Below, one piece after another: positions 1 through 21,000 of a stretch of DNA of 40,515 nt. The stretch comes from Candidatus Omnitrophota bacterium. GTDB taxonomy: Bacteria; Omnitrophota; Gorgyraeia; Gygaellales; Profunditerraquicolaceae. Where the stretch lies: positions 1 to 40,515 of the forward strand of contig JAPLLU010000087.1 of assembly GCA_026387385.1 (NCBI GenBank). Direction: 5' to 3'. Under the pieces are notes generated by a model. It was given only the letters and a program-made list of their open reading frames with translations. It ran no database searches and was not told where the DNA came from. A program made the position numbers and the translations under genes. Every line of letters starts with the position of its first letter. Within the stretch, counting starts at the first letter, position 1.

Positions 1-3000
1 AGAGTAACTGAAAGTCCGCTCACCCCTGCGGAAGAGTCTGAAATGCTTGCCTACTTTGCAGCACATCCTGAGTTACAGCCTGGCGATATCTTTACCTTGT
101 CAACTGGAAGAATAGTACGTATTGTTGAAGAGCCGCTTACCTCAGAAGAAGAGTCTGAAATGATTGCTTATTTTGCAGCACATCCTGAATTACGGCCTGG
201 TGATGTTTTTATATTGTCCACTGGAAGAATTGTACATGTGGTTAGAGCGGAGAACGGAGATATTATTTTACAACCCGAGACCATTGTTCTCCAACCCGAG
301 ACCATTGTTCTCCAACCCGATACCATTATATTAAAGCCCGATACTATCGAACTAAAGCCGGATACTATTATCTTACAGCCCGATACCATTATGTTAAAGC
401 CCGAAACTATCGAAATAAAGCCCGATACCATTATTGCCAGAGCCGATACTATCGTAGCCAAAGCTGACACCATCAAGGCTAACGCCGATACTAACTTTAA
501 AGAACTGCGGCCGCTAAGCATTGAGTGGACCTTAACCGGGGAAACAGAAGCTTATAAAATAGAAGAATTTGTGTATTCTCAAGTGGCGGATGAACATGGC
601 TTTATTCAGGACGCCGGCAATTATATAAAGACTACTTATATACGCCGAGTAAAAGACAATAAGTTCGTACTTCTGTCACTGGAATTTTATGATAAGGACA
701 ATCTTATTACCGAGGCCATAAAATTTGATGTGGAAGGCTCTGGCGCCATATTCAAAGTGGGCGGATACAATCCTATCTCTTACAATGATTATCTGAATCA
801 AATCAGTTCTTATAATAAGCCGATTTTCAAAGATACAGATAGACAGACCGTTAATCTGGGTGCACTCCAGGGGCATTTAGATGAAATAGGAGTGGAGTTT
901 GAAGGCAGGGATGACGGGTTCAATAAAGAAATCGATAGGCTTATAACCAGCCTTGATGTTCAGGGCGTAGAATCTTTATTAGCCTATAAGAGCATATTCT
1001 ATTCCTATGAAAACGGCGTTCAGAGAGAACATGTAAGATACATCTTATATGATGGAATCTATGCCGAGCCGCGTATTACCGTAGATGATGTTCAGGTAAA
1101 TTTACAGTATCCCGCAGGCACTTATGTGAGAGATATAAAACCGCTTGATTCAAGATATTTTGACCAAATATCTATCTACGCTGCAATCACTCCTGAAAAC
1201 AAAGTGACTGTAGACGGGACTAAAATCAAAATAGGCAATGATGTCTTTATTATTCGCGGCGTTACCTACTCTGTAGTAGCAAAAGGCCAAGAATTAAAGG
1301 ATTTAATTTTGGATGCCGGCACCATAGCAAATATAGAAGATACGCTAACGAATATGCAGCAGTCCGGTATTAACACAGTACGCACCTATTATCCGCCTAC
1401 AGCAAGCCTGCTTGATGCATTTGCCAGACATAACATCAGGGTTATAGTAGGTATTCCTTATTTCGATGACAGAGATAATCCCGGCCCGGATATCGCAACC
1501 GGAACTTATCGCGGATATATTCAGGCTTACAAGAATCATCCGGCTATCCTGATGTGGGAGTTCGGGAACGAATATAATTATAATGAACAATGGTTTGACG
1601 GAGATATAAATAACTGGTATACGAAATTGGAAGAAGCAGCTAAGACTGCTAAATCCATAGATAGTAATCACCCAGTTTCTACTGCGCACGGAGAAGTTCC
1701 TACTGAAGAAGTATTGAAAAAAGTTCCTTCCGTAGATGTCTGGGGCTTAAATATTTATCGCGGGAATAATCCGCAGGGTGCCATAGATGAATTCAGAAAG
1801 ATCTCCGATAAACCTGTATATTTGTCCGAGACAGGCGCTGATTCTTATAATACGGTGACAGGAAAAGAAGATCCAAAAGCGCAGGCTGATGCAGCAGAGG
1901 CGATTTGGAATAATATTAGCGCCAGTATCAATAAAGCCGAATGTTCCGGCGTTACCTTTATGTCCTGGCAGGATGAGTGGTGGAAAGGCGGCAGCGCTGA
2001 CGCCCAGGATTTCACAGGATGGGCATCTTCTTCTTATAATAATCAGGGCGTCTATCCGGATAGTTTTGCTAATGAGGAATATTGGGGCTGGACTACAATA
2101 GATGGTAACCTTAAAGAAGTAGCTCAGAGAATGCAGAAGGTTTGGGGAGTTAACGCAGGGGCTATTGAGTTGAACAAGCAAGAAGTATTATCTAAAGAAG
2201 ATGCAATAAAACAAGGCAGGATAACGGAAGAATATATTACCCCCATGATTCCTAAGGTTACTGCTCAAGTTGTCTTGACCTATTATAATAAACCTCAGCC
2301 TAAACCTGATTTCTTGCCTGCCCCAGGCTCAGTTACTTACCTCGTAGGAACTCGTACTGATTTTGCAGGCTTAAAAATCAGCAGAGGCTATTCCGAGGAT
2401 GTTTCGTCTTTCAAAAATCTTATAAAATTCGGAGTTTATTCTGAAAGTAATGCCTTCGGAGGATGGGTTTATCGCGAACCTGTAGATGTCTTTGGCCGCA
2501 CCCGTATTAAGGCAAATTACAATTTAAGCGAAGTATATATAGTCTTAGAGTTCCAGGAAACGAATATATATCAACCCAAAACAGCCTTAAAACTTATTAG
2601 AGACCAAGATAATCCTGGCCAATATATCGCTGTCCAGGTATTTACTTCAGAGTCAGATTTGGTTTCTTTAGATGATATATTAGCAGGTTATAACCAGAGC
2701 GATATAGATAATGTCAAGGGAGCGATTGGACAAATCAAAGCAAAAAAAGTAGAAGAGCTTGGTCCAGCGGACTTATTGTTAGTAAAAAATACAGTACAAA
2801 TTGAAGGCGAAACTTATACTCAATATGGCGTGCCGGGAGATTATCTGGGCAGGTCAATTATCATTGACCGCGGGCAAACCATATTTATTGCCAAGACATT
2901 TATAGGTATTACTGATACTACCTACGAAGGATATTTTATAGATAAGGCAACCAAGACAACGTTGTTAATGTTAAAGAATACGGATGATAAAGACAACGGC

Positions 3001-6000
3001 CTGTATGGCGATAAAGATTTAGGATATGTCTTAGGGCCTGATTTAAACAGGGATTATTATCGCGTAGGTTACTATAATCCTAACACCGGTGAAGTCTGGT
3101 ATCGTTGGCACTATCCTGTCCACATCTGGGGTGGCTATGTCTATGAAGAAAGAGGGTATTTTGAGGCATTAGGAAGCGAAGAAGAAATAAAGGCTTTGAC
3201 GGAAGAAGCTAAATCAGTTGCAGCATTAATTGAAAAGAAAAGCATAACGGCAGAAGAGCTAAAAGAAATATTAGGCAAGCAAAATATCCGGGCTAAAGAA
3301 GGTAAATCCTATTTCTATATTGATAAATCAGAAAGGATGACTATAGTAACCAAGAGATGGATTCCTGAAAGCCGCCTGCGGGTAGATGAATGGGCAACCA
3401 CGCGCGATGAGCCGTCTAAGACAAAATTTGCATATGTAGTGAACGGTAGAGAATTACTGAAATATACTACAGAGACTACAGAGACTCAAGGCAGAATGCT
3501 TATAAAGGATATAATGACGCCAGAGGTAATAGATGCTTATAATAAGCGGTTCGGAAGAGATTTATGGAAGGATTTAGAGACGATAGGTATCACGCAAGAG
3601 ACAATCCTTACCCAGGTAAAATTAACCCCGATCTTCTGGCAGGGGAGTAAAGATACTGGACTTCAATCAACAAACCGTAGCGGCCCAGCCAGTTATTTCT
3701 ACACCTTACCCAGCGATCCTTTGGGAAGAGAATTATTTAAAGTAGTGCCTACTAGTGAAAATTCCTTTAAATATACCATCAATATGTGGTGGGATACTAA
3801 TGAGGCACGATCACCTTCAGGAGAATTGCTATTAGGGGTATTGCCTAAGAGCTTTACTTTGGATAACGGAGAAATAGAAGTAAGGACATTCAATAGGGCG
3901 GAAAAATATTTAGATTGGTATAATACCGAAACCCAAGAGGTAAAAACAGTTAATATTCACGATTTGCCCGGAGTGAATTATGAATACGTATATATTTACG
4001 ACGTGGTGAATTCTGATTTCAATAAGCTCTTAAGGCAAGAGATAAGATCGCCTTCAGGAAAAATGATCCAACAAATATATGGATATCAGGTGGCAAGGAT
4101 TTTGAACAAGCTGCCTCAGACCATAGGCTTTGAAGTCATACAGTATAATCCTTCTAGTTCATTTGATGAGCCGGTAGTTGCCTTCAACAAAGAAACCGGG
4201 AAATGGACAAAGATATGGAAAGGAATTGAGTATACTGATAATCCTAATGCAGTAGTAATTCATCATACTGTTGAAATTGAGCCATTAGCTCCTTATAGGA
4301 TATCAACCTGGACAAGGACTTATGACCAATATGGTAGAGAGAGCAATAAAAAGGAAGTCATGACCGACTTCATTAATGAAGTTTTGCAGCAATGGCTCTT
4401 GGTGGTGGGAATGACTGTTGCGACGGTCGGATTTTTCGCTGGCCTTATTCTTTTAGGAAAGCGTGCAGAAAAGAAAGCCAGAGACCAAGAGCTAAAAGAA
4501 AAGGCCAAGGGAGTAAAGGGTGGCAACCGTAATCCTGTTAGTGCGCTCTGGAGAGAGAAGAGAAAAGAGAGAGTAAAGGATATCCTGAAGAGCTTCACGG
4601 ACAACCCCAAAGAAATCCCCGCTAATTTAAGAATAATTAATTATGTTGTGAATGCAACATCCAAATTACCTTCCACTTATACCTTAAAAGATATCGAAGG
4701 GAATCTTGCTTATCAGGCAAAAATAAAAGCGTTTAGAGAATGGCTGAAAAGGGTCAGAAAGAGCGAAAATACTAAAGAAGGCCAAGAACTTGAACTCCTG
4801 TTGAAGCAGGCTAAAGTAAGCCCGTTAGAATTTATGGTATTAATTGAAGTAGTCTATAGTTTGGCCAAGGAATTCAGATTCTCTAATCCATCAGTTATCT
4901 GGTATCATCTGGATAAAGCCCTAAGGATGATTCAAAAAAGCGAAAAGAACGTAATAATAGAAGAAATAAGGTCAGATCTAGAAGCTTTAAGGAAACTTAT
5001 CAATCAGTCTTACCCGGTGCAGTCTGCCGCAGGACGGGATAGGCAAGGCAAACCGACAGGCTTGTTCGCCTATTACATAAATAACTTGCCTAAAAAAAAG
5101 TTGGTATCTTTGGTTGTAAAATACATAGGCATCTTTTCAACAGGAAAGATAAGAGAGCTGTTCGGAAATCATATTGCTAAATTGTATAGGGGATGGCCCG
5201 CAGCTTTATTTGAAAAATATAAAGATATCTTATCTATGAAATTAAAAGAAAAGATTATGGAGAATCCGATTAGAAAATACTATGTTACTTTTGAAGATGT
5301 AGAAGATAGGTTTAACGGTCTTAAAAGTAAGGATAGTAACGATATAGATTTCATCAAGCTTTGGGATAGCCTGGAAGGGAAACCCATGGATTATAAAGTT
5401 CAAGAATTAAAAAATTCCGGATTAAAATTTAAAACCTATTCCGATGGCATTGGCTTAAGAAGATATTTAAGAAATATTTTCCCTGTTATCGTTCCTTTGT
5501 TGCCTTCTATGATTTCAGTGATTATCCTGCCGTGGCTTATTCCTGGTTGGCTTGGCTGGGGAATTTCTTTGGCTGTTTCTTTAGGCATTGGCTTAATACC
5601 TGTTATTTCAGGAAATCGCAGTTATTATAAGGCAAACTTTGGCAAAGATAGATTAAGACAAGAAAGGCCAGGAAAAATTATAGAAATAAATAATTTCTAT
5701 AAATTCTTCGGTATCTTCACCTTTGTTTATACCTCCTGGAACTATCTTGCCCTTTCTTTCTCATATCCAGTCATTTTCAATGCTTTAATCTTATCCGGAA
5801 ATCCAGTATTAACAGGCGTAGGCGTTGTCTTATTACCGATTATCTTTGGGTTCTTAATCTTAAGTATCTGGGCAATAGCTTACCCCGTATTAACTATATT
5901 CGGTTATTACCAAGGAAAGAAAGACAGAGTAGGCAAGATTAAGAGCTGGCAAGAGGCATTAAAGTCAACGACTATCAATGAGGCTAAGAAAGGATTTAAA

Positions 6001-9000
6001 GAATTCCTTCCTGTCAGGTTACAAGACCGATGGGAATCGATTTGGGATAAATTCTGCGAAGCATTTGTAGAGAGGTTATTGAAACAGTATAAGATTTCTT
6101 CTGGTGCAAAAGATATTTTACAGAGAGTTCTTAAGAATGGGCAGATAACCGAGGACCAAAGGAAAGATTTAGGAAAAGAGGTTGACGAAGAGGGGTTGGA
6201 AAGAATCCAGCGTTTTATCGGAGCCTGGTATATGAGAATGCCTCAGGCCTTGGATTGGGATGAGCTTCCCAGTCTGACCGCGATTATTACTTGTTTTGAT
6301 GAGCAGGTAATTACTAGTTTTAAAACGTTAAATAAACCTATAAATAAAGAAAATAACAATTTCCTTATTCCTTTAAATTGGTTTATTAGTAGGTATATTC
6401 TTGATTGGATTAATTTTGCGAATCAACAAACAGAAGATATAAGAAATAAATTGCGTGCCAACATAATTATAGACGAAAAAGGAATCAGAATTAAAGACTT
6501 TAATACACCTTTATCAAATGATTTAAGTGAAGATTTAAAAGAAAAAATAGTTGAATGGGCAGGATTACATTTTATTCGTCCTGACAGAAGCATTGCCGAA
6601 GTAAATGAGATATACGAGGTTTATAAATTCTGGGCAAAGATGGCTAATAAAACAGAGGAAGACATAAAAGAAAAACTGCAGATACTTTTAATTTATGAAG
6701 GCTATAAGTTTATAAAGAACAGTATCGATGAAAGTCCGAAAGATCAAAGACTAGCGCTTATCCATGCTTTGTCAAAATATTCATTTGCTGAAGCCTATTT
6801 GGGAGATGGCCCGCTTTACCGGATCAACCCTGAATGGACAGGGAAATCTTATTTGCAGCTCAAAGAAAGCGCAAAATATTTGAAGAGCGAGCAGGATGAA
6901 AGAGATAAATTTTTTGAAGTTGTCCACACTAGTTTAGGCAATTTAGGACCGGAAGCCAAAGATAAACCCGACTCTAATTTAGACAACAGAGCTATCAAAG
7001 GTAAAACTATAGGACAGAATGCCGGTGTTGAATATGCAAGAGGGGATATTGTGCTCTTCTTTGATTCTAATGCCTCAGTAAGATTTGAAGAAGCAATAAG
7101 AATACCTGCCGTCTTAGCAGAATTTAATAAGAGCGATAAATTGGCGCAGGTTTTATTTGGCGAATATATTAATACCAAGAATTACTCCTGGATTGCTGAG
7201 GGGATGGCTTTCGGTGAAGAATCCTGGACACAGGTGATGCAGAGGATTCTGGATCTGTATGGAGCGATCGGATTCTACGGACACAGCGCCTTCATTAGAG
7301 CTGATGCATTGAAAGCAACCGGATTTTTATTGAATTTCTATGCTTCTGAAGATTTATTGGGAGCTATAAGAATGTGGGAGGAAGGCTACGATACGACACA
7401 TAGAGAATATATCTTATTCGGTAAAGGACGCGAGCGCGGTTACATTGCTTCTCATACACCATTGGGAAAATGGTCTGAAGGTTCTGCAGAATTAATCTTA
7501 GGAAGGCAGGTTGAACGTTCATTAAGAAGCGATAAGCTTCATATGGGACAAAAAATGATGCTTATCTTTGCGCTCTCATTTTATACTAAAAAGCCTTTGG
7601 TGGTAATATTAAATTATTTGTATTTGTTCGCCTTTATTTTCTTAGGCATAAGTCCTTTTATAGGATATTCCTTTGGTTTACTTTTTGGAGTAATTGGTAT
7701 ACTTATCTCTCAGGCAATCAATGCTACCGGAATCCTGTATCTTATTGAGCAAAAAGGAATAATTAGAGGCTTGGCTAAGTTTATTCATCTTTTCCCCCAG
7801 CTCTTTGCTCTGTATACTGCCGAAATAGTGGTTTATGCGCAGAGGCTATGGAAGGGCATACAAGGAGCAACGGGATTCGCAATGTCTTTAAGAGGCTTAG
7901 ATTTGGAGTTTCTGTCTTGGAGTCAAATCTGGGGAACAAGTACCCCCCGGGTAATTAAATACTTAGATAATAAAGGAACAGTATTGAAAGAAATCGCAAT
8001 TGGAAAGATTAAATTTACTAAAGATGGGAAGTCAGTGTTTAGAGGCAAGGTTATTAGCGGAAAAGATAAAGGCAAAACAGAAGAACTCAATGCAGATGAG
8101 ATTGAGGCATTAGTTAGTACAAAAGGAGCTAAGTTTGATGATGGTAAAGAAGAGAAAGTAAGCATAACCCCGCTCATAGTAACAATTTTTGCAACAGCAC
8201 TTTCTACTGCGTTTGTATTCTCTTCTTCTGTCATGGTTACTTGGGCAGGAATTATAGGCTTAGCCTTAATTCCTCTTGCGGTAAGCGCAATTTGGCGTAA
8301 AACAGTTTTTGGCCTTGGTGTGAGACTGCAGATGATTTTAGCGATACCAATGGTCGCTTTAATATTTAACGGCGTCTGGTTCTGGGGAAGTATTGCCGGA
8401 AGCCTTATATTATCTGTTTGTTGGGTTGGGTTATTCGCAACCCTGGGGATTTATATCATAGGCAGCTTCATGAATGACAAACGCATCAGCTCCTTAGGCC
8501 TCATCGCATTCTTTGGGGCATTAGTGTCCGTAACTTATTTTCAATCTGCAGTACTCTTATTGTTTATTTTCTCTATTCTCAGCTTAGCTATTCCTCTTGC
8601 CTGGTTATTAATGCCTGTATTCGGTCACCCCAGAATACGCGCTAATTTTAAATATCAAATGAAATCTTTCCTTAATTGGCTGATGAGGCGTAAGGCGGAG
8701 CCGGCTGCTCAGCCAGAAACTCCAAAAGTAACGCCGTCTGCGTCTGGTTCTCAGCTTCCGGGATCTGGATCTCAAAATCCTGGTTCGCAGAGTTCAGCAA
8801 CTGAGATACCATCTGATATCCCACCCACTACACCGTTAAATTTACCCGATTTGTCTAAAGGGAGTTTCAGCGGTAGATTTGAAGAAGCAATTACTAAAGT
8901 TGATGAAGAGCATCCAAATGTAAGGTCTCCTCCGCAGGAGCCCAGCGAAAAAGAGCAAAGCCTCATATCCGGTAAAACTATAGTTATAGTTACTCACAAT

Positions 9001-12000
9001 TTCTTAGCTTCCGGTGGAGTTGAAACATACCTGCCTTCCTTGACTTCCCGCTTAGCCAAAAATAATGCTAACCTTAATTTAATTTTAACCTACCCAGAAC
9101 ATCAACAGTTAGCCACTCAGAGCGAACTACGCCTTGAAAATGGAAGTAAAATTGTCTTCATTCCTTCGGGTTCAACATCTCATGATTTAGAGAATACATT
9201 ACAGAATATTTTCAAGCAAAACAGCGTAGATCTAATAGTCTGCCACGTACCATTTGCTATGGAGAGTACCATTGCCATTAATTTTGCCAATATTCATAAT
9301 ATTCCGATTGTGCTGTATTGGCATGGTGGTCAGATATTGACTCGCGAGGGGCAAGCATATGGAATGGAAGCCCGATTTGCAAAAGCAACTAAGATTGCGG
9401 TTGTAAGCAGGGCGGGCAAAAAACAGATAGAAGATTTCGGTTTATCTGCAGAAGTAGTTGGTCCCATGGTCGAGGTGGCTAACTTCAATCCTATTTTAGC
9501 TAATGGCGAAGAGATAAGGAAAGATTACAATTTAGCAAATAAAGCGGTTATTCTTGCTCCTAATAGAATTCATCAATATAAGGGCTCAAAAGATTTATTG
9601 GAAGCGGCGTCTCAATTGAAGAAAAAAGGTATCAATAATTTTGTAGTGGTTATGATTGGAGATGTACACGAGCAGGCATATCTTAATGAAATTCAGCAGT
9701 ATATCGATAATAATGATTTGAGAGGTAATGTGATAATGAAACCAGTTGCCATTCCTCAAGCAGAGCTTAAAAATTGGTATGCGGCTTGCGATATCGTTGT
9801 ATTACCTACCTACGCCGAAGGCCTGCCACTAGTTCTATTGGAAGCGCAATTAATGGAACGGGTCGCTGTCGCTTATAGGATTGACGGCACACAAGAAGCA
9901 ATGAAGGAAAATGAAACCGGGGTTCTGGTTGACTTGATTGGTAACGACCATAAAATTGCTGATTTGGTCAAGGCTTTACAACAATTAATTCAAGATAAAT
10001 CTCAAAGAGAAACTATGGGTAAAGCAGGCAGGCAGTTCATTTTAGATAACTTTAATCCCGATAAATTAATTGAGCGGCATGTAAGATTATATGCTGAAGC
10101 CATGGCTGAATTTCGTCCGACAGCCGCCACTATTACGATGCTACCTTTGGAAGCCATACCAGTTGCGTACTCAGGGTCTTTAGCTCCAGAATATTCAAAT
10201 AAAGAACAATTGCAAGTAACAGGACAGACCAGAGAAGAGCGCAATAGAGCTAATCTTCTTTCCATTGGCGCAAATCCCAAAACCAAGACCTTTGGTGACC
10301 TTGTCAAATACGGCAACCCTGACTTAATTGAGAAGAAGGTAAATCTTATAAAACAACTTAAGGCAGAGGGAAAGATTAACGGAAGAAATGGCGGCATTGC
10401 CGTAAGTATACTTCGTTATAGCGCAGAAACTATTAAGGCGCGTGCGGAAAATTTGGGAGGATATGGTTATTCTCTTAATGCTGGGAATATAAAATTCAAT
10501 AAATACCAGGAGATAGTCCAGAAACACCAGGAAGTAGCGACCTCATCCATTCCCATAGTTGCTATTAAAGCTAAATTAGCTAACCTGGTGTTTACAGAAA
10601 AGGATATCATAGGTGAAGGTATAGAGTTTGTAGTTTATACAAAAGAAGGTTTGGATTTTGTAGTAAAGCCGCCCAAATTCGGAGTTCTTTATAAAAACTG
10701 TAGCGAAAAAGGTTATTCTCTTGCCGGGGAATTATTACCAGATCTTATAGCTCCTTTTGTTTTAGGAGTGCCGGTTGTTATTATTGATTCCCAGGGAAAG
10801 AAGCATAATGTCCAGGCATTAATCCAAAAGAAAATCACGCCTCTTCCGGAAAGAATAAATAAACTTGTCCAATTAAACGATAAAGAAGCCATAATAGGTT
10901 TACTGAAGAAAAAAGCCGAGCTAGATATAAAAGCCTTAGAGAGAGGTTTATGGATGATGGATAACAGTGTATTTAAAAACTATGGCATAGATGAAAAAGA
11001 AAATGTAGTTTTCATGGATTTAGGCCATATCGCTCGCAAGACTTATAGCGCAGAGTTAATAGTAGAGCTTTGTAAAATTAACTCTTCATCGAGGGATGAA
11101 CTTATATCTTATGGGGTTACAGAAGAGATTATAAATGAGTTTACGATATTTTTCAAAGATAAGCTGGAATGCTGGATAAACGAACTTGAAAAACAAGGAG
11201 CGGGAATAGTCTTTACAAAACTCACAACACCATTAGAAGCTAAAGATGAAATGGAAGTCCGTTTCTTAAAAGGTGGGTATAAACAGGATGGTTACGGCGT
11301 GCCGAATGGCGCTGCAGTAGATGGGTCGCATGCTTTAATAGGAACTCAAGGTTATTATACAGAAGTAGGAAAGAAGATATTCCTGGATACGGTCAACAAA
11401 ATGAAGGGATTCTTCCAGGGGCGTGCGAAGAGAATCGGGAAGCCGATTAAGCTTGTTATCAAGACCGGCATCGGCGGCCAGCATACCCCATTCGCGGGTA
11501 TTGCCAGCGGATTTGAAGTAATAGATTCTCAGACCGGAAAGATTGTCGGTGAGTATGAATTAGGCAAAGATTTTGAGGGGGCAATATCTCAGATTCTTAA
11601 AGAGCTCAACGCTGACTGGACTCAAGTGGCACTTATTCCCAGTTCAAAGTCAGGCTCAACCGATGAAACAATGATAGTCTTTGTTGAGATATTCTATGCG
11701 CTCTTAAAACATATAGCTATGGAGAAAGGTATTAACGGAGAAAAATTCGCAAACAAGATTCTGGATACTTTGCACGAGGTTAATTTTGTTGAAGGCAAAG
11801 AGCGGAAAGGCCAGGATTTATTCAAGGGATTCAGTCTTAAACTGATAAGTGAAAAAACAGGTGTAAGCTACGACCAGGTAAAGGAAATATTCGGGATAGT
11901 ATTAGGCAATATGTTCTTTGAGACCACGGACAGGACTTCGGATAGCCGACTTTCCGCGTTTATCAGAAATTCAGGACTGGATAGAGAACTGGGAGGAGAT

Positions 12001-15000
12001 GCTCCTGGATTTGGCGCGATGTTTGATAATGTAGGAGGCCGCTGGACAGGAGACCTGCATATGATGACGTTCCTGGCTTATTACAATCTTGACGCCGAAG
12101 AATACTGGAATGCCCGTTATGAAGGTATAGATAAAGTGCGCTCAGGGGTTCATACCGGTAATATTTTAGGCAATATGATTCTGGATAATGGCATAACTGA
12201 CATTGCCCTGGTAGTCCCTGACTATCTTTTCTGGTTTGGCAAATCCTGCGAGCAGAATTTCAATGAAAGTATTTGGCAGGGAGGATTTGCTAACCTCGTT
12301 ACCATTAAAGAGAGTAAATGGCAGGCGCAGAGCAAGCATTATGAGAATAAGTCTAATCGCTTGGTGATCAATTTATCAAGCCTCAGCATCCCCGAAGCTT
12401 CATTTAACTTATTCAAAACAGCACAGCCTGATTTTACAAAATTAACCAAGCAGGAATTGGCTGATGCCTTTGCCGGGCTCTTTACCTTATTCTATGGTAT
12501 GACCAATACTGTTGGTTGCCGTTTGATTAACCGGGCATTATTAAAGGAAGGATGTACTGTAGATAATGTGGATATGAATAATTTGGATAAACGTGAGACT
12601 ACGATTGTCCAGAAAAATCTTTTCCTGCGCCAGCCTTATGTGGAATTAGGCAAGGGCCTTCTCGAAGTTAGCTTAAAAGCCTTGCAGGAGGAAGAGGCTA
12701 AGAATCAAGGGGCAATTACTAAAGCTTTAGAAGAGATCCAGCGATTAGCCAGAGAAGGACAACTTAAGACCAATATCATCGGAATTGACGCTCCCGCAAA
12801 TATAAAGAGCCCAGAAGAATTAGCCAGCCTTATTGCTAAAGTTATTGAGTTTGCAAAAGAAAATAACCGCAAATTTGTTCCGTTTATTTATCTGGAAGGC
12901 GATAAATTCTATGCCTTAAGGGATTATTTGATTGACTTAGGGATTGAATGGGTGATGCAGGGGACCGGGGATCAGCATATCAGTTATCAGCAGGTATTGG
13001 CCCAGCCAAAGAAGTATTTACCGTTTATTATATCTTTTGTCCCTGAGCAGCCACTTGCTGCCAAGCCCGCAATTGGTTTTGCCAAAGGATATTTGCATAA
13101 TGTTTCTTCTCATCTGGTGCGCGATTATTTTGGGGAGGCTTCTTATCGTGCTTTAACTGAGTCAAGAGCAGAAGAGGACGGCCTGGGATTATTCATGAGG
13201 CTGATTGACTCTTCAGATGACCACAAGATGTTAAAAGAGGCGTTTAACAGCTTAGAGAAGGCGCAAGAGGAACTGAGTCAGCAGAAGGAACTAAAAGAAA
13301 TATTCGAGGCGCAGCAAAAGAAAGACTGGCTGAAGGTGCAGCGTTCACAGGAGAGATTAAAGCAGCTGCTGCTGGGGATTTACGAGGATAAATTCCAGGA
13401 GCTTCTTTCTCAAAAGCCGGACATCAAGCCTGTTTTTGACCTGGCGAATAAATCACGGCAGTCTCAAACCATAACTCCGCAGATTGCCGATTACTATAAT
13501 TTGAAGGGGCATTATAAGGAATTTGTCTCTAAGGCTAAATTTTCCACAGCAGGAATCCGCGCCTTTATTGATATATTGCACAGCGAGAATCCGGATAAGA
13601 TGTATAACGATATGTTCATGGCACTTCTTATTGAGACAGAGGCGGAATTCTTAAAAGGCGTGCATAAGCAGATTCAAGGGCAATTAGAAAAAATCACCGA
13701 TTTAAAAGAATACTGCAAATCCTTAAGGCAGGAGATGGGCTTAGAGAACGTGAAAAGCATAGAGGAGATCTACGGAATGAGCCTGGAAGAGATACTTTTA
13801 TTCTTAAAAGTTAATATAGTCAAATTGGTGGGCGGCGAAGTAAGGGTGCATACGGCAAAGTACTGTGAGATGGAGGCACGCATCCTTGCGGAGAAGGGCA
13901 TAACCGTAATTGTGCCGCAAAATTACTCTAACAGCACAGCCATATACATATATTCATTCCTTACCTACATACTTGGAGCCTGCGGCGCAACACACTATAC
14001 TTCCAGCCACAGCGCCAACTACCTTTACGGCAGGAAGAATCTCGCTCCCGACGGAGCACAGCTCCTTCCGAATTTATATGAGAAATACATCGATATCTTA
14101 AGCCGCATTATAAATACCGAGATTTACGGGCAGGGCGGGCATACGGTGGTTATGGCCGCGGCAGATGATAAGCGCATATTGAACACTTTAAGTTATAAGC
14201 ACATGGCGAAATTATTTACTTCTATTTTGAACATCACTAAAGAAAACGTGGAGATAATCAATGAAACCGCGAAAAGAGGCCATAAAATTGTTTTGAATTG
14301 TTTGAACGGCTCAACCTGGAAGACTTTTGAGCCGATGCTTGAGGAATTAGGCATAGATAAGGGGGTATTTGATGTCATCTTTTTGGAGGAGGACGCCTTC
14401 TTCAAAGCCGGATACCAGGTTGTTCTTGATAAGCAAACAGGTAAGTATAGCGTCGAGCATTACGGGATTGACACGACGTCTTTTGATAAGGTCGTTCCGA
14501 CGATTCCTTACGTAGACAAATTAAAAGGTTACCCGGTAGGCACGTTTGTGTTCGAATGCGACCCCGACTCCGACCGTTTTGTCGTTAAGCAGATTATGGA
14601 TAAGAGTGCCATACCCTTATTGAACGAATTCGGGGTTGATTATTCCGATTTGCAGGAAGACAGCAAGATATTGGTAATGCCCACACCGAATAAGATATTC
14701 CTGGCCCTGGATATAATAGATAAAGAGAATTTGGAGGCAGCCGGAAAGTGGGGGAATTATACTTCCGTATATTACATTACTTACGTTTCTACCCGTGCCT
14801 GGGCTGAATTTGGCGATGCCCTGTACCCCGGTTTAGTCCGCGTTATGGAGATGGTCGGATTTAAGAATTTAACCGGGATGCAGAGAATCTTAGAAAAATG
14901 GTTGTTTGAAACAAAAGATCATTCTATTTCCTTTAAGGACCAGCTGGGGCGCGAGATTACCCTTAACCGCGATCGGGAAATTAGAATACATTCTAAAGAA

Positions 15001-18000
15001 GAAGAAAGCGGCGGCCGCGTTTCCGGGACAAGCAAGCCCTGTATCAACATTTTAGGACAGCGCGTCCTGGCTATGCCTGAAAAGAGCGCCGCAGATTCAA
15101 CGCTTTCGATGCTTATATTCGCGGCTAAGGAGTACCTAAATAATAAGAATTCCGGCCAGGAGGGAATGTCTAATAATTACTTAGTAATGAACTTCTTAAA
15201 AGACCGTTTCAATAAATACGGGCTGAAGTCCAAGATTGATACCCGCCTTGACCTTGTACATGCTGAACAGGGCCCCATCGCTGCTTTGCCTTATGCGGAA
15301 CAGCAAAAGGCCATGGATATAGCAGGGGTAAAGAAGTCAAACTTTAATAACCTCGCCTTCTCGTTAGGCAAGGCTGTGCGTGACGGTAAAATTAGCATAG
15401 TTCAGGCTATTGAGGTTCTTGTGAAGATTATGCCTAAATACGAAGAGACCTGGAGATGTTTAAGCGAAATAACCATGACTGAAGAGGAAGTGGTGGGCGG
15501 GGAAATGAGGCCTGAGGGTGTGCCTATGTTATTTAAGCCGAAAAATGGCCGCACGCCGTTATTTACAGAGCTTGATTTTCGTCCTTCGGGGACAGATCCC
15601 TTAAAGAGCAAGATTTACATTCACGCTGAGGCCCTGACTCCTGAACAAAAAGCAGAAATGAAGGCTTACTTTGAGAGCCTGATAGAATATAACTTTTATC
15701 CTGCGCTGGAATATTTTGGCATAGAGCCTGTGACATCCAAGAGCCCCTTGGTCGATAGGATAGGACTGCGCGCGTTAGAGTTTATGGCAGGGCCTAATCC
15801 ATCCAGCCTCCAAGGTAAGCATACGACAAACACTCCTAATGCAATTAAACAAAACCTTATTGAAAATGGCCAGAATTCAGAAAAGGCGCGCCTACTAAAT
15901 ACAAATATCATCAATACAGATGATTTGAAGGTGAAGGGAGTCGATGAGAAGGAGCGTATAGCAGTTAGCCGGGAGGAACCCGCGGTTTCTTCGTTAGCAT
16001 ATTTACGTTCGCTAGTTAAAAAATATAACCTTAATCTCTTTGGGGAGGTAAAGGCTGAAAGAGGTCCTCCAGTACTTATTAGCGAAAATCACGGCTGGGC
16101 AGAAGTTTTCTGGGGGCTAATGTGGGCAAGAAAAAAGGTTAGGGGCAAAGGCATTTTAGTTAATTTTGATCTGCATTCCGATATTGATTTTACTGGCGCT
16201 ACTTCAAGAAGTACGCTTCTGGGTGGCAATGATAATACATTTGAGCTGAGGAATAATGGGCACGTAGAGTTTATTGTTTCAGGAATCGTCAATAGACATT
16301 CAGGAATCGTCAATGGACATCAAGTAACCGTCAATGGATATATAGATGAAATTTACTGGGTAGTGCCTCATGATAATAGGGTTTATTATGGGGGCAGGAA
16401 AGAAGTAATACTATATGTTGCTTCCTATGAAGCTGATCACGGCGTTTCAGTGTATGTTTCTGAAAACAACTCAGAAGATCCTTCTGAAGGTAAAGAAAGC
16501 CTTAAGCCTATAGTAAAAACTGAAGTTAAATTGCACATAGTAACTTCTAATAACATGCCTAGTTTTGCGAATGAATCCAGGCCAGTCTTTATTAGCATAG
16601 ACGCTGATTATTATACAGCGCGCTACTTGGAATATTACAATCATAATATATTCTTGAAAAATAAAATGAATAATCCCCTTTATCAGCTTCCGGAAGGCGT
16701 AGAAACTATGGATTACCGGGCTATGATTAATTGCATTAAGGAAGAAGCCAGAAAAACTGCAGAAGCTATAAAAGCAATAAATCCGGCTTTGATAACCTTT
16801 AGTTTCTCTACGTCATCCGAGGCATACGAAAATAAATTTACCCTGAATGAGAAAACCCGTTATGCAAATGGCTTCAATGGTTACTTGCCTTTTGAATTCA
16901 GGGATAAAGTATTTTACTTTATTTTTAAGGAATTAATCGAGCAGGATGTCTTAAGGTTTGGATTTTCTCTGGAAGACTTTGAAAATGAATTCTCAGATTT
17001 TTCTGATACGGGAATAAATGTAGAAACCAGTCGTTTCCCCGATGGTGAGTGGTATTTGAGGATTTTAAATCCCGGTATAGTCAAGGGTGCCAAAGTGAGA
17101 GTGTTGCATTCTCTCGAATCCGCTGACGATTTAGTGAAATTAGTTTTATTAATGGATGCGCTGCGCATGTACGGTGCCGCATATATCCAATTAGTCTTAG
17201 ACAAGCCATACACCATTACCAATGGCTTAGATGAAGTATTGCGTTATCTCTGTAATAGTATAGCTTATCGTGATGGGGAAGAGATTAGAGAGCTTGATGT
17301 AGCTAGGCTAAAGCCTATAGAACAAATGAGGTCCTGTGTTTGGGTACATACAGTATTATATCAACATGCCCGCCTAGAGGACGATGCTAAAGAGGCAGCA
17401 AGAAACGTCAATGCCGAGTGCGCAAGGATCGAGATTATCAACAAAGGAGAGGATAATCCTTTAAATTGGAAGATATCTTTGCCAAAAGGCTTAAAAGATA
17501 AAAATGTGGTTCTGGTTCATAGCACCGAGAATAACTTCGACATTGCCGAGTTATGGCTTATGCTTATTGCTTTACGCCAAGCGAATGTAGCATGTATTTC
17601 TCTGATTGAAACCTATTCTGGTTATTCCAGACAGGATAAGAAATTTAAAGAAGGAGAGGGCGTTAGCGCAGCGACGATGTTAAAAATGATAGATGCCCTT
17701 GTGGATAAACATTTGACCTTGAATATCCATTATGGCAAGAAGAGCGGCATAGTCCAGTTAAATGATTACCCTTATCAGTTGCACAATCTGAACGCTTTTG
17801 TCCAAGTGGCAGAGAAACTGTTTGATTGGGTAGCAGGACAAGCAAAGCAAACAGGCATAGATAATCTTGTTGAGGAATTTAGTAAACATCCCCTGCTCGT
17901 ATTAGGCCCTGATGACGGAGCATTCAATTATGTCCAGGAAGCAGCAGAGGTATTAAAGAGATATATAAAAGTTAAGTACGGTGTCGAAATAGATACACAT

Positions 18001-21000
18001 TGCGGTTATATGGATAAAGTCAGAGTCAGCGCTACGCAAGTGGAGATACCAGCGTATATATTAGGCGAAAATGGCCAAAAAATTACCAAGGTAAAAGATG
18101 TAGATGTAAAGGATTGTTGGGTATTTATTATTGATGATGAAACATCCACAGGAGGAACATTATTAGCTGCAACTTACGTATTAGTAAGAGAGATGGGAGT
18201 CTCTTGGTCAAGGATTCTGACTGGCGTAGTTCACGGCAAGCTAGGAAAGGGTCTTGAACCATTTAAGACAGATCTGAATGAGGAAGAGATAAGAGCTGCT
18301 ATAAGAGATGGAATAGGCATAGAGCCAAAATCAGAATACATAAATGAAGCCAAAAAATTAATGCCTTCTCGACTATTGGTGGCTACAAAGTCAGTGGATT
18401 TAGCTTTACGATGTGAATTCCCAGAAGAACAAAAGGTTCTTATCGATCTACTTATCAGCCATGCGGTCAAACGTTATATAGGTGAGAGTATTGCTAAGCC
18501 TTCCGACACAAACACAGACTTGCCTGCTAACCAATCCAATAAATTCTATTCCTTCTTTCCTTTTACTTTCTTATCTGTTGGCTCTATACCGGTAATTTCG
18601 GATATTATTAATTGGATCTCAAATAATCCAGTTTGGGCTGGATTGATTGGGTCAGGTGTTGTGGGGTTAGGTATTGGCCTATTCTTTGCTGTTTGGCGGT
18701 ATATATTCCCGGTGAGTTGGTATCTTTGGAGACTAAAAAGTCCACGCTCTGATGCCCGCTCATCCGCAGCCGAAGCCTTAAAGAAATTAGGTGTAACTAA
18801 AGACCAATTAATAGAAGGTTACATTAAGGCATTATCATCCCGAAACTCTGATGCCCGCTCCTGCGCAGCCGAAGCCTTAAAGAAATTAGGTGTAACTAAA
18901 GACCAATTAGTAGAAAGTTACATTAAGGCATTATTATTATTCCGAATCTTTGACTCTAATGCCCGCCCCAGCGCAGCCAGAGTCTTAGGCGAATTAGGTG
19001 ACTCTAGAGCAGTCGAACCTCTGATAGAGAGATTAAACGATCCAGACTACTATGTTCGCTCCTGCGCAGCCAAAGCCTTAGGCAAATTAGGCGACTCTAG
19101 AGCAGTCGAGCCCTTGATAGAAAGATTAAGGTACTCATACTCTGATGTCTTCTTCTCCACAGCCGAAGCCTTAGTCCAATTAGCTGACAAGAGAGCAGTC
19201 GAGCCCTTGATCGAAAGATTAAGCGATTCAGAATGCTATGTCCGCACCTACGCAGCCAGAGCCTTAGGGGAATTAGGCGACTCTAGAGCAGTCGAGCCCT
19301 TGATCGAAAGATTAAGCGATTCAGGTTGCCGCACCTACGCAGCCAGAGCCTTAGGGGAATTAGGTGATGCCAGAGCCATTGCGCCCCTAGAAGACTTATT
19401 ATCTCGCACTTGGGAAAGCCGAGAGGAAGATGACTATGGGCCTTATGGAGAGCGTTGTGGGTCGCATACGGAATATAATTCTGAATATACTGAAATTTCA
19501 GAAATTATTAAGATGCTTAGAGAGAAGAATATGAATCAATCCACCAAATTCTATTCCTTCTTGCCCCTTGCCTTCTTATCTGCTGGCTCCATACCGGTAA
19601 TTTCGGATATTATCTTAACTTTACAGAATATAATTCAGCCTTTAATTAGCCTTCCGTTCTGGTGGCAATTTGCCATTTGGATAACCGCTCCTTATGTTTT
19701 ATCTTTAACTGTATATGCAATAAAGAATATTATAAGGACCAACAAATTGACTAAAAATTTCGGGTTTAATATAAGGAATAGATTTTCTATAGTTATTTCT
19801 TCAATGTTTAAAGGGTCATTAAGCAAAGATAAAAGTAGTTTTGGCATAAGCGCACTTGGACTAGCCGCTTTTTCAGTATTGGTAATATCCTTAAAATATA
19901 CAGGTGAACCCTTAGTAATAATATGGGGTTATTTTGGTTCCTTATTAGGGTTATTGATTAATTATATTGTTTTTGTTTTCGGAGTATATAGCCATTATAG
20001 TTTAGAGGGAAATTATATCATCCCGGCTATAATGGAGCGCGTAAAGAGGTGGGAGGCAGAAGATAAAAATAGACTGAAGACAATTTCTATAGAGAAAGTT
20101 TTGGAAATGCTATCAGATAATGATATACAAACTAAAAAGGCAGCCGAGGCGATATTGCAAATAAGCGGAGTCCCCAGAGAAGAAGCGATAAACGGCTACC
20201 TCAAGGCTTTATCCAACCCATACTCGTCTGTCCGTATCTACGCCATCCGGGCCTTAGTTAAAATTGGATATGAAAGGTCAGTTGAGCTCTTAAAGGAACT
20301 TTTAGCCGGGACCCCGCAATATATTAAGGAGGATATCTATGGGCCTTATGGAGAACTCAGTGGAACATGCATAAAAGAGAATCCTGAATATATAATTTTG
20401 AAAGCCCTTAATGAGCCTCAAGAACAAAAGCCGATAATCAAGAGAGAGCGTCCTTCGCCCCCCAAAGGATTAAATATTGAACTGGTTAAGAAAGCGCTTA
20501 ACACGGGTAAGGTAAATCTTGAAGATATAAAAGATCCAAGAGTGAGGGATTTCTTAACATTCTTAAAAGAAAATGGTCTTAGTTATATACTAGTTATTGG
20601 CGGAGCGGTTAGGAGTATCTTCTTTGATGAGAATGTCTATGATTTTGATATCAGTATCGGGGCAGACCTTACAGACGGAGAAAGGAAATCCTTTGCTGAA
20701 TCAGATAGCCAGATAAACCAAAGAGTTTTGAAGCATGCTTTAGATACTTTAACCAAGTTTGCGGTTAAGCGGGGTTTCAAAGTTTCCGATTTCTTGCCTC
20801 CCCATAGAGGCCGGGCAGGAGCTTTTCAAGGACTGGAAGTAGATTATTTCGGCCCGGTAGAGAATAAGAGGATTAAGAGGCCGGTTTTTGATATTCAAAC
20901 CAAACAAGGGTATTTTATGCATGACGGACCGGCTATCTTACAAATAGCAATGGATGCCGAAGGCAATCTCTATGGGCCAATTGGGAGCTTAGAAGATTTA

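Follow-up and report, generated by a model that had tools for sequence, protein, structure and literature searches.

We report a module of glycosyltransferase family 48 (GT48), the family of yeast Fks1 and the plant callose synthases, in a predicted giant protein of a Candidatus Omnitrophota bacterium. The stretch of DNA analysed, which we call the window, is the whole of contig JAPLLU010000087.1 (40,515 bases), and the module is placed at about 4558-8607, equivalent to ~1,350 amino acids (aa). Its homology lies with GT48 and not with the GT2 family; it carries the catalytic set of Fks1 in an Fks1-like layout, resides in a bacterial host and recurs in the phylum of that host. We consider it likely that it is a true member of GT48, that it forms one module of a membrane-anchored multi-enzyme giant protein and would act as a beta-glucan synthase, and that it belongs to an old radiation of the family within the Omnitrophota. 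An earlier note on this DNA, made from the letters alone, had claimed a GT48-type glucan synthase inside a prokaryotic giant protein at 4720-8690; the Pfam model Glucan_synthase, which passes its cut-off, and Fks1, the best relative among solved structures, bear this out, and the proposed span was roughly right.

Homology to GT48 and the active site

Glucan_synthase (PF02364; curated cut-off 37.2 bits) matches the translation of window 4600-8799 with 49.4 bits (E 3e-13) and that of 4441-8700 with 55.8 bits (E 3.3e-15), the score in the whole-genome scan being 45.8 bits, while the GT2 model Glycos_transf_2 (PF00535) stays under its cut-off in the window (18.1 versus 23.3 bits). Compared with solved structures, the single window sequence finds yeast Fks1 (7xe4) as its top match (E 4e-4), with BcsA of GT2 at E 0.01. 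The bacterial modules form two subgroups, here termed window-type and canonical, the window being closer to the module of the relative G056 (33% identity over 915 aa) than to those of the other relatives (22-30%). A profile of five window-type sequences recovers Fks1 with E 7.3e-19 (70 bits over ~450 positions, Fks1 residues 809-1275) and BcsA with E 1e-5 (26 bits). The canonical Omnitrophota profile recovers Fks1 with E 5e-66 and plant callose synthases with ~285-300 bits at 31-36% identity, and the excised modules of relatives score 81-296 bits with PF02364. Hence, GT48 and not GT2 furnishes the best profile hits. The motifs quoted in the earlier note are all found in the translation of 4600-8799 (GKTIGQN...ARGDIVLFFDSN...FEEAIRIPAVLAEF, FYGH, SEDLLG, HREYILFGKGRE, AKEFRF, TFEDVE and KTY), and we confirm that this set goes far beyond chance expectation and that the observation is real.

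The functional residues of Fks1 comprise E851, D1080, K1082, N1085, D1102-A-N1104, E1155, K1172, E1173, H1195, N1220-E1221-D1222, K1246, R1248 and K1261, with the D-A-N standing in place of the D-x-D of other GT-A enzymes (PMC10499315, PMC12715860). A HMMER alignment of the window to 7xe4 gives the following equivalences, in which the window residues are numbered along the giant open reading frame (ORF):

5881..7554, + strand: GT48 catalytic (GT-A) domain, giant residues 1961-2518, from the residue alignment to 7xe4 and column invariance
Fks1 E851: window E2101
Fks1 K1082: window K2335
Fks1 D1102-A-N1104: window D2355-S-N2357
Fks1 E1155: window E2388
Fks1 E1173: window E2406
Fks1 H1195: window H2428
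Fks1 N1220-E1221-D1222: window S2449-E2450-D2451
Fks1 K1246 and R1248: window K2475 and R2477
Fks1 K1261 (interface helix 2): window K2490

The Fks1 residues whose importance is established by mutagenesis, with the GT48-specific D-x-N (DSN in the window) among them, are present. The proposal that SEDLLG represents the catalytic (N/S)ED thus holds, its Asp being invariant. In an alignment of 46 sequences (41 bacterial modules and five eukaryotes), the sole invariant columns are the Lys, the Asp and Asn of D-x-N, the E1155-equivalent, YGH, the Asp of ED, and the Lys and Arg of GKGR, with the E851- and E1221-equivalents kept in at least 90% of the sequences. The D-x-N, the E1155-equivalent and GKGR(E/D) occur in every GT48 row displayed, inclusive of the window, and in none of five bacterial GT2 proteins, whose aligned rows carry D-x-D or D-x-E and of which one has YGH. 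At the position of the RW in the GT2 motif QxxRW the window displays GKW, without the preceding Gln. Judged by its sequence, then, the window has neither the D-x-D nor the QxxRW of GT2, nor a GT2 Pfam model over its cut-off.

The invariance of the catalytic residues among sequences with just 17-25% overall identity argues for a working enzyme, and the module is probably a bona fide and active bacterial GT48 glucan synthase. We see very little probability in its being a catalytically dead or structural relic within a giant adhesin-like protein. Giant Omnitrophota ORFs are indeed said to show poor conservation and to lack a clear function (PMC10066038), and no RNA dataset is listed for window 6175-7983, which says nothing either way; against this stand, besides the residues themselves, a run of 13,505 codons without a stop and the retention of the module across many families of the phylum.

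Compared with Fks1/Gsc2 and the plant callose synthases, the window module shares the Pfam family, the Lys, D-x-N, Glu, YGH, (S/N)ED and GKGR(E/D) elements, the Lys equivalent to K1261, and the order of parts, namely a putatively FKS1_dom1-like region, a transmembrane (TM) cluster, the GT-A domain and further TM clusters. It differs in being shorter (~1,350 versus ~1,900 aa), in its low identity (17-19% across the entire core) to the rows from plants and a green alga, and in being a module of a predicted polypeptide of at least 13,505 aa rather than free-standing. It further differs at the D1080, N1085 and K1172 positions, in the kept GT2-like KW and in its place outside the eukaryotic clan; FKS1_dom1 and the plant-type domains PF25968 and PF04652 were not detected in the window by Pfam, and regulation by Rho1 would be unexpected in a bacterium. 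With GT2 enzymes of the BcsA type (4hg6, 5ej1, 7lby) the module has a faint yet genuine similarity in sequence (26 bits); it shares the logic of a membrane-embedded processive GT-A enzyme with a presumed TM channel as well as the (S/T)ED, and its KW and GK..G.N resemble the RW and K.G.LN of GT2. It departs from them in its D-x-N instead of D-x-D, in the E1155, YGH and GKGR features, in the putatively FKS1_dom1-like N-terminus and in the score of Glycos_transf_2 under its cut-off.

Membrane layout, the upstream GH158-like domain and the likely product

The module is preceded by a single predicted anchor, and its parts follow each other on the forward strand thus:

4381..4455, + strand: single predicted TM anchor, giant residues 1461-1485 (hydropathy scan and positive-inside rule)
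4558..5439, + strand: N-terminal region resembling FKS1_dom1 or the Fks1 accessory domain, giant residues ~1520-1813 (hhalign and motif line-up)
5485..5880, + strand: TM cluster A, giant residues 1829-1960, ~4-5 predicted helices before the catalytic domain (hydropathy; the loop 1870-1905 has 8 Lys and Arg)
7555..7707, + strand: TM cluster B, giant residues 2519-2569, the first predicted helices after the GT domain (hydropathy scan)
7708..8163, + strand: charged soluble loop, giant residues 2570-2721, variable among relatives (23 Lys and Arg, 17 Asp and Glu)
8164..8607, + strand: TM cluster C, giant residues 2722-2869, ~6-7 predicted helices at the end of the module (hydropathy scan)

Ten Lys and Arg residues lie in the 30 residues after the predicted anchor, as against five in the 30 before it. 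Since the positive-inside rule puts the side after the anchor inside, we infer that the first ~1,460 residues lie outside the cytoplasm, whose inner side would hold the polypeptide C-terminal to the anchor together with the stretches before and after the GT domain. Hydropathy places a soluble stretch (giant residues 1486-1828) between the anchor and TM cluster A, and the soluble catalytic stretch of ~560 aa (1961-2518) sits between TM clusters in an Fks1-like order, the number of helices being approximate. Both TM clusters that had been proposed are thereby recovered, at 1829-1960 and then at 2519-2569 plus 2722-2869. The columns P843, V845, Y852, G860, S862 and F864 in cluster B are invariant in an eight-sequence alignment, and cluster C is followed by a Lys/Arg-rich stretch and then by a Ser/Gly/Gln/Pro-rich linker.

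The N-terminal region of the module contains AKEFRFSNPSVIWYHL, VTFEDVEDRF and KTYSD. In a line-up with plant rows, AKEFRFSNPSVIWY corresponds to the FKS1_dom1 core, VTFEDVEDRF to RNYDDLNEYFWS, and KTYSD to KTF.E.RSF. When the regions before the first TM cluster of 34 prokaryotic and 10 eukaryotic sequences were compared with hhalign, 152 columns aligned with a probability of 83.7% (P 8.1e-6). The reversed control gave P 0.32, and five column shuffles gave P 0.37-1.

Upstream of the anchor, on the predicted outer side of the membrane, lies a second domain of relevance to the product:

1345..1830, + strand: GH158-like TIM-barrel domain, giant residues ~449-610 (phmmer against the Protein Data Bank, PDB: 9oro, GH158(Pro), E 1.4e-11, 47.1 bits)
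1570-1572, + strand: candidate acid/base E524 in FGNE, aligned with Glu143 of the GH158 enzyme
1828-1830, + strand: candidate nucleophile E610 in YLSE, aligned with Glu229 of the GH158 enzyme

The match of the glutamates allows for a constant offset of 8 in the chain numbering of 9oro. Pfam sees the domain as GH2_C (28.1 bits), and we call it GH158-like on account of its similarity to 9oro and of both putative catalytic glutamates. GH158 enzymes are retaining and strictly require a beta-1,3 linkage at subsites -2/-1; their acid/base is Glu143 and their nucleophile Glu229 (PMC13195107). The domain lies ~1,730 aa upstream of the GT core in the window and ~1,860 aa upstream in the relative G043, where both share a frame of 42,913 aa. 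It was likewise found (BLASTP, E <= 1e-5) in 9 of the 31 bacterial-type database proteins whose GT core begins after residue 1,300, eight times upstream by 1,125-2,179 aa and once downstream, and also in the partial protein P0006; two of the database proteins bearing it are further annotated with PF03198 (GH72). The fusion of GT48 with a GH158-like domain is therefore frequent and not universal. Searches of four further relatives gave, as their best GH158-like matches, ORFs of ~800 aa that stand apart.

As a separate observation, a two-gene beta-1,3-glucanase-like locus is conserved among five relatives, apart from the giant genes: a stand-alone GH158-like ORF of ~800 aa accompanies a second GH158-like ORF of ~420-475 aa, the two lying 2-3 kb apart (G056:C3:46387-50109; G053:C38:30610-34026; G014:C53:15151-18440; G058:C215:3018-6499; G043:C2:333671-336884).

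The recurrent pairing with a GH158-like domain points independently to beta-1,3-glucan, which we consider the likely product of the GT48 module. We posit that the cytoplasmic GT-A domain would take up UDP-glucose and add glucose processively to a beta-glucan chain, possibly in a metal-free fashion given the D-x-N that replaces D-x-D, and that the flanking TM helices would form a channel through which it pushes this chain. The part N-terminal to the anchor would be extracytoplasmic and would present its GH158-like beta-1,3-glucanase or transglycosylase domain to the emerging chain, which this domain could trim, release or remodel, such that synthase and remodeler would be paired on a single predicted polypeptide. 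GH72 enzymes of the Gas/Gel type are wall remodelers coupled to glucan synthase in fungi. A fungal synthase/remodeler pair is also seen in Bgs3 and the GH16 protein Ghs2 (PMC13612389). As there, a GT48 synthase would be matched in the window with an extracellular glycoside hydrolase or transglycosylase acting on its product, to go by the fusion and the predicted topology; here, however, a single polypeptide would unite both activities, with a hydrolase that is GH158-like and not GH16.

Several observations weigh against the above reading. The Pfam model FKS1_dom1 (PF14288) has no match in the window, with one relative reaching 15.4 bits against a cut-off of 27. Thus, of the two Pfam models to which the earlier note had pointed, Glucan_synthase scores above its cut-off and FKS1_dom1 does not appear; the FKS1_dom1 likeness of the N-terminus, seen in its motifs and in the hhalign result, is weaker than that note implied, the profile-profile comparison being its only support. 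The fold, the channel and the topology are likewise deductions from sequence alone. In the active site, Fks1 D1080 is replaced by Lys, N1085 by Gly, K1172 by Gly and, conservatively, Y849 by Phe, such that of the UDP-glucose contacts E851 (E2101) and K1082 (K2335) are kept in the window, unlike Y849, D1080 and N1085. The Gln of the EQ that precedes a conserved Arg is Leu in the window; EQ is found in the canonical and most eukaryotic GT48 rows, with QI in one amoebozoan-type row. The window-type profile scores two GT2 proteins at 35.6 and 30.4 bits, as compared to 11.6 and 9.6 for the canonical one, which makes the subgroup of the window the most GT2-like part of GT48. Two window-type members (L014 and P0004) exceed the cut-off of the GT2 model Glyco_trans_2_3 (PF13632), and a feature search of the ESM Atlas returned GT2-type clusters only (0.90-0.92) and none of GT48, a weak result, as full-length GT48 proteins may be missing from its cluster set. 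Finally, the GH158-like pairing is limited to the 9 of 31 proteins noted above, and linkage specificity is not a property that can be read off such sequences.

Some of these points favour an alternative in which the module is an active processive GT2/GT48 synthase that makes something other than beta-1,3-glucan, such as a beta-1,4, mixed-linkage or other sugar polymer, the subgroup being functionally nearer to GT2. It would account for the high scores of GT2 proteins with the window-type profile, the KW kept at the place of the RW of QxxRW, the two members over the PF13632 cut-off, the GT2 neighbours in the ESM Atlas and the lack of conservation at N1085. We judge this alternative improbable, if still deserving of some weight: D-x-N, E1155, YGH and GKGR, all specific to GT48, are present, Fks1 outscores BcsA by 13 orders of magnitude with the very same window-type profile, and the fused GH158-like domain belongs by its similarity to a strictly beta-1,3-specific family (PMC13195107), with the pairing occurring in both subgroups.

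The bacterial host, the giant frame and the distribution of the module

Having argued for a GT48 glucan synthase, we turn to the protein and the organism that carry it. One open frame takes up the entire window, with 13,505 codons, zero stops and both ends open; the genome measures 1.57 Mb (149 contigs) and is 98.1% complete and 2.4% contaminated. Two features frame the module:

1..40515, + strand: giant ORF of the multi-enzyme type (no stop codon; many enzyme domains)
9013..10035, + strand: GT4 glycosyltransferase domain, immediately 3' of the GT48 module and probably cytoplasmic (Glycos_transf_1 92 bits, Glyco_trans_1_4 72 bits)

The domains detected in the frame comprise a GH-A TIM barrel, GT48, GT4, phosphoribosyl pyrophosphate synthetase, HEAT repeats, a fucose-pyrophosphorylase-like domain, phosphoglycerate kinase, NUDIX, an amino-acid kinase, an aminotransferase, phosphoenolpyruvate carboxykinase and a glycerophosphodiester phosphodiesterase (GDPD). 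A comparable tiling of many enzymes, with sugar-metabolism domains, GT group 1, NUDIX, internal HEAT scaffolding and a small genome, characterizes the Omnitrophota giants described as multi-enzyme metabolic clusters (bioRxiv 10.64898/2026.06.07.730766). The phosphoglycerate kinase domain is near full-length (280 bits, window 27800-29070), and the carboxykinase domain is of the ATP-dependent type (84 bits, window 38350-39460). The linker between the GT48 module and the GT4 domain (window 8650-8799) is of low complexity and rich in Ser, Gly, Gln and Pro (...PSASGSQLPGSGSQNPGSQSSA), and the start of the frame (window 1-560) holds two copies of a ~40-aa unit (...LTPAEESEMLAYFAAHPELQPGDIFTLSTGRIVRIVEEP...) followed by short repeats of the type IVLQPETI/IILKPDTI. 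A supply of sugar nucleotides from within the giant polypeptide was considered and found unsupported: PGM_PMM_II (19.4 bits) and NTP_transferase (18.1 bits) both fall below their cut-offs, and of the sugar-nucleotide-type domains the fucose-pyrophosphorylase domain alone exceeds its own.

Two DNA runs from freshwater sediment, compared with window 1000-9500, yielded contig pieces of 215-675 bases, many of them identical to the window. In either run these pieces account for 28 of the 30 bins, and none of them spans the GT48 module. One contig of the run X2 joins 3545 to 6330 with four extra letters, a joint absent from the joints table; it could represent a strain variant without that stretch, a relative or an assembly artefact, and is not used as evidence.

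The four nearest database relatives of the module are partial proteins labelled Candidatus Omnitrophota or Omnitrophica, the fifth match being labelled 'archaeon GB-1867-035'. PF02364 exceeds its cut-off in 6 of 61 related genomes, where the open frames measure 11,193 and 42,913 aa and the scores reach 276 bits. When the phylum was sampled evenly, 38 of 401 genomes lay over the cut-off and 44 at E <= 0.001 (42 of 341 high-quality genomes), as against none of 14 control genomes; these 38 belong to many families, with frames of 1,542-74,522 aa that are mostly giant. A pattern scan over one genome per prokaryotic species, which used a four-sequence canonical alignment and may under-count window-type modules, recovered 24 confirmed loci, labelled as Omnitrophota/Omnitrophica (14), Candidatus Aceula lacicola (1), Planctomycetales/Planctomycetia (5), 'bacterium' (2), Elusimicrobia (1) and Gammaproteobacteria (1). 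The label 'Planctomycetales' misleads in no fewer than two cases: L015 corresponds to the contig of G014, which shares its family with the genome G000, and L026 has the contig number, coordinates and frame length of G333, which shares its class with G000. A profile built from prokaryotic GT cores only, run against 1.84 billion cluster representatives, returned 2,201 proteins at E <= 0.001, of which 611 reached E <= 1e-30.

A few records deserve separate mention. GT48 records labelled outside the Omnitrophota include L015, L024, L026, L030 and L037 as well as P0011, P0020, P0022, P0031 and P0007, with labels such as Planctomycetales/Planctomycetia, Patescibacteria, Parcubacteria, Endomicrobiaceae, Njordarchaeales and 'archaeon GB-1867-035', some of them unreliable. 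Of other Omnitrophota proteins, P0013 and P0014 combine PF02364 with RHS/DUF6531 and Peptidase_C39, and P0024 and P0025 combine it with PF03198 (GH72) and PF02836; the GT48 module is shuffled among giant proteins of differing make-up. GT2 domains of the Glyco_trans_2_3 type occur in long frames of relatives (L043, G009:C65:3856-6851, 2,283 aa; L042, G041:C78:2166-5786, 2,398 aa), L043 being the GT2 protein most like the window-type GT48 profile, with 35.6 bits.

To the possibility that the window is a eukaryotic contig in a bacterial bin we attach next to no weight. A precedent for it exists in L033 (G444:C1, ~5454-12740, on a 294 kb contig), from a metagenome-assembled genome (MAG) labelled Gammaproteobacteria, which we rejected as a bacterial GT48: its ORF of 1,691 aa scores 627 bits and lies inside the eukaryotic clan, with metagenomic eukaryote-type proteins as its neighbours in the tree. 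A frame change interrupts its FKS1_dom1, and the GST gene next to it is broken into an N-terminal and a C-terminal ORF ~40 bases apart; because both interruptions look like short introns, this is probably a eukaryotic contig that was wrongly binned with a bacterial MAG. In the window, typically bacterial enzyme domains are joined in an unbroken frame of 13,505 codons, its nearest relatives are proteins of Omnitrophota MAGs, and it sits in a bacterial clade of the tree. Furthermore, the same architecture is found on 510 kb contigs and on a 3.36 Mb record titled chromosome, where the coordinates of locus L032 coincide with the frame of 74,522 aa in the one-contig genome G402. A eukaryotic contig, which the earlier note had held up against its own claim, is thus not what a 98%-complete bacterial genome, relatives labelled Omnitrophota and recurrence in 38 of 401 genomes present.

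The origin of GT48 and the meaning of a bacterial radiation

From 277 GT-core sequences, we retained 220 with at least ~85% profile coverage; a FastTree was made of 129 rows, from which 71 were finally hand-picked. Left out of the 129 were most plants (seven of P0036-P0127 kept), P0001, P0027, P0030 and seven exact duplicates. The 71-row tree was computed over 549 columns with IQ-TREE (LG+C20+F+G4, posterior mean site frequencies) in a quick search, with the Shimodaira-Hasegawa-like approximate likelihood ratio test (SH-aLRT) as the sole support. Plants and a green alga were named from the database, the fungal-type clade via P0247 (Fks1 residues 262-1815, 1,269 bits), and an early-branching group was called eukaryotic via Planoprotostelium fungivorum (Amoebozoa) and a EukProt transcript.

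In this tree the 37 eukaryotic rows form one clan (SH-aLRT 99), inside which 31 rows from the fungal type, plants and further eukaryotes group together (SH-aLRT 100); the window-type clade of 10 rows is equally well supported (SH-aLRT 100), and the canonical Omnitrophota form several deep clades in between. The GT48 radiation of the Omnitrophota is thus large, old and outside the eukaryotic clan, and the window falls into a GT2-like subgroup of its own within it. That a divergent prokaryotic GT48 might bear on the origin of the family, as the earlier note had surmised, is upheld in so far as the bacteria lie outside the single eukaryotic clan and make up the more diverse side of the tree. Forcing the Omnitrophota together with the plant/green rows costs 130.7 log-likelihood units (delta lnL) and is rejected by the approximately unbiased (AU) test (p-AU 0.002, a value weakened, as are the other AU p-values, by our naming the groups after viewing the FastTree); hence the bacterial genes are no recent capture from plants. 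This AU test covered plants and greens, and by tree position the bacterial sequences lie outside the fungal-type clade too.

Three lines of evidence bear on polarity. Firstly, over identical columns the same pair of GT2 proteins scores 35.6/30.4 bits with the window-type profile, 11.6/9.6 with the canonical and -10.0/-6.8 with the eukaryotic one; in PDB searches the window-type and canonical profiles detect BcsA (26 and 24 bits) and a eukaryotic profile of 12 sequences finds no GT2 at E <= 10, the profiles compared differing in length. Secondly, the position of the GT2 RW is occupied by KW in the window-type sequences, by KF in the canonical ones, and by KI, KL or KT in eukaryotes. Thirdly, an outgroup tree with five GT2 proteins (240 columns) has its root where the window-type group branches off, with a support of 98 for the split between GT2 plus window-type and all other rows, and shows the eukaryotic clan (96) deepest within the canonical Omnitrophota; when the window-type clade is taken out, the attachment point of the outgroup is still among the Omnitrophota and off the eukaryote branch. 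These five outgroup proteins come from the relatives only, the support values are SH-aLRT from quick searches, and the rooting is suggestive rather than decisive.

Because the similarity gradient, the KW/KF/KI series and the outgroup rooting agree, a bacterial origin of GT48 is somewhat favoured. We tentatively propose, as a scenario that is quite possible while short of probable, that GT48 arose in bacteria, passing from a GT2-type synthase through window-type to canonical forms, and that a single transfer from such a bacterium then supplied eukaryotes with the gene from which all fungal Fks and plant callose synthases descend. The window-type sequences would then represent an intermediate, within or near the Omnitrophota, in which D-x-N, YGH and GKGR had been acquired and KW was still kept. 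Omnitrophota have been reported to attach to larger cells and to be predatory or parasitic.

The converse, which we likewise hold to be a real possibility without thinking it probable, is that the Omnitrophota gained GT48 by horizontal gene transfer from an early or unsampled eukaryote, with fast divergence in giant genes and GT2-like motifs arising by convergence; in that event the bacterial lineage would be uninformative as to the origin of the family. In its favour, GT48 is broad in eukaryotes and was otherwise found only in the Omnitrophota and a few otherwise-labelled MAGs, and it is patchy within the phylum (~10% of genomes). The AU test moreover does not reject a single Omnitrophota clan (delta lnL 11.9, p 0.089), the GT2 outgroup is very distant, and treekit flags a long-branch risk, points that also weigh against the polarity given above. 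Conversely, the bacteria are nested in no sampled eukaryotic lineage, the clan of the latter having a support of 99, and their union with plants and greens is rejected as above. The GT2 outgroup attaches inside the Omnitrophota with or without the window-type clade, GT2 similarity drops stepwise from window-type through canonical to eukaryotic sequences, and the deeper tree structure lies on the bacterial side.

In the literature examined, GT48 is treated as a eukaryotic family, known from fungi, plants and protists: its phylogenies contain eukaryotes only, as far as seen (PMC7965971, PMC3797821), and the characterised bacterial curdlan synthases are GT2 (PMC6821405). The main texts on Omnitrophota giant genes, in the parts available (bioRxiv 10.64898/2026.06.07.730766; West-Roberts et al. 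2023; Seymour et al. 2023), do not mention glucan synthase, GT48, callose or FKS, although their supplements may list PF02364, and our literature search did not find GT48 together with Omnitrophota or Omnitrophica; glucan synthase and Omnitrophica co-occur in what is, from its listing, a survey of a salt-lake microbiome. The PF02364 annotation is already attached to bacterial relatives in public databases. CAZy or InterPro may list a few bacterial GT48 entries. The novelty lies in meeting a known enzyme family in a domain of life that is new for it, in a new fused architecture and in a GT2-like intermediate subgroup.

GT48 enzymes make the main structural glucan of fungal walls, the callose of plants and the storage laminarins of algae, and are the target of echinocandins and ibrexafungerp. 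A diverse bacterial radiation, present in about one-tenth of the sampled Omnitrophota genomes, makes the origin of this family testable, and it also means that counts of GT48 by dbCAN or Pfam in metagenomes are no clean marker of eukaryotes. The bacterial modules offer small, intron-free and Rho1-independent homologues for the biochemistry and structure of catalysis and translocation. For the Omnitrophota, our proposal provides a first concrete functional handle on part of their enigmatic giant proteins, whose roles may include the making and trimming of beta-1,3-glucan at the cell surface. If the bacterial origin is true, the subgroup of the window would be the closest living relative of the transition from GT2 to GT48, and the target of the echinocandins would be bacterial in origin.

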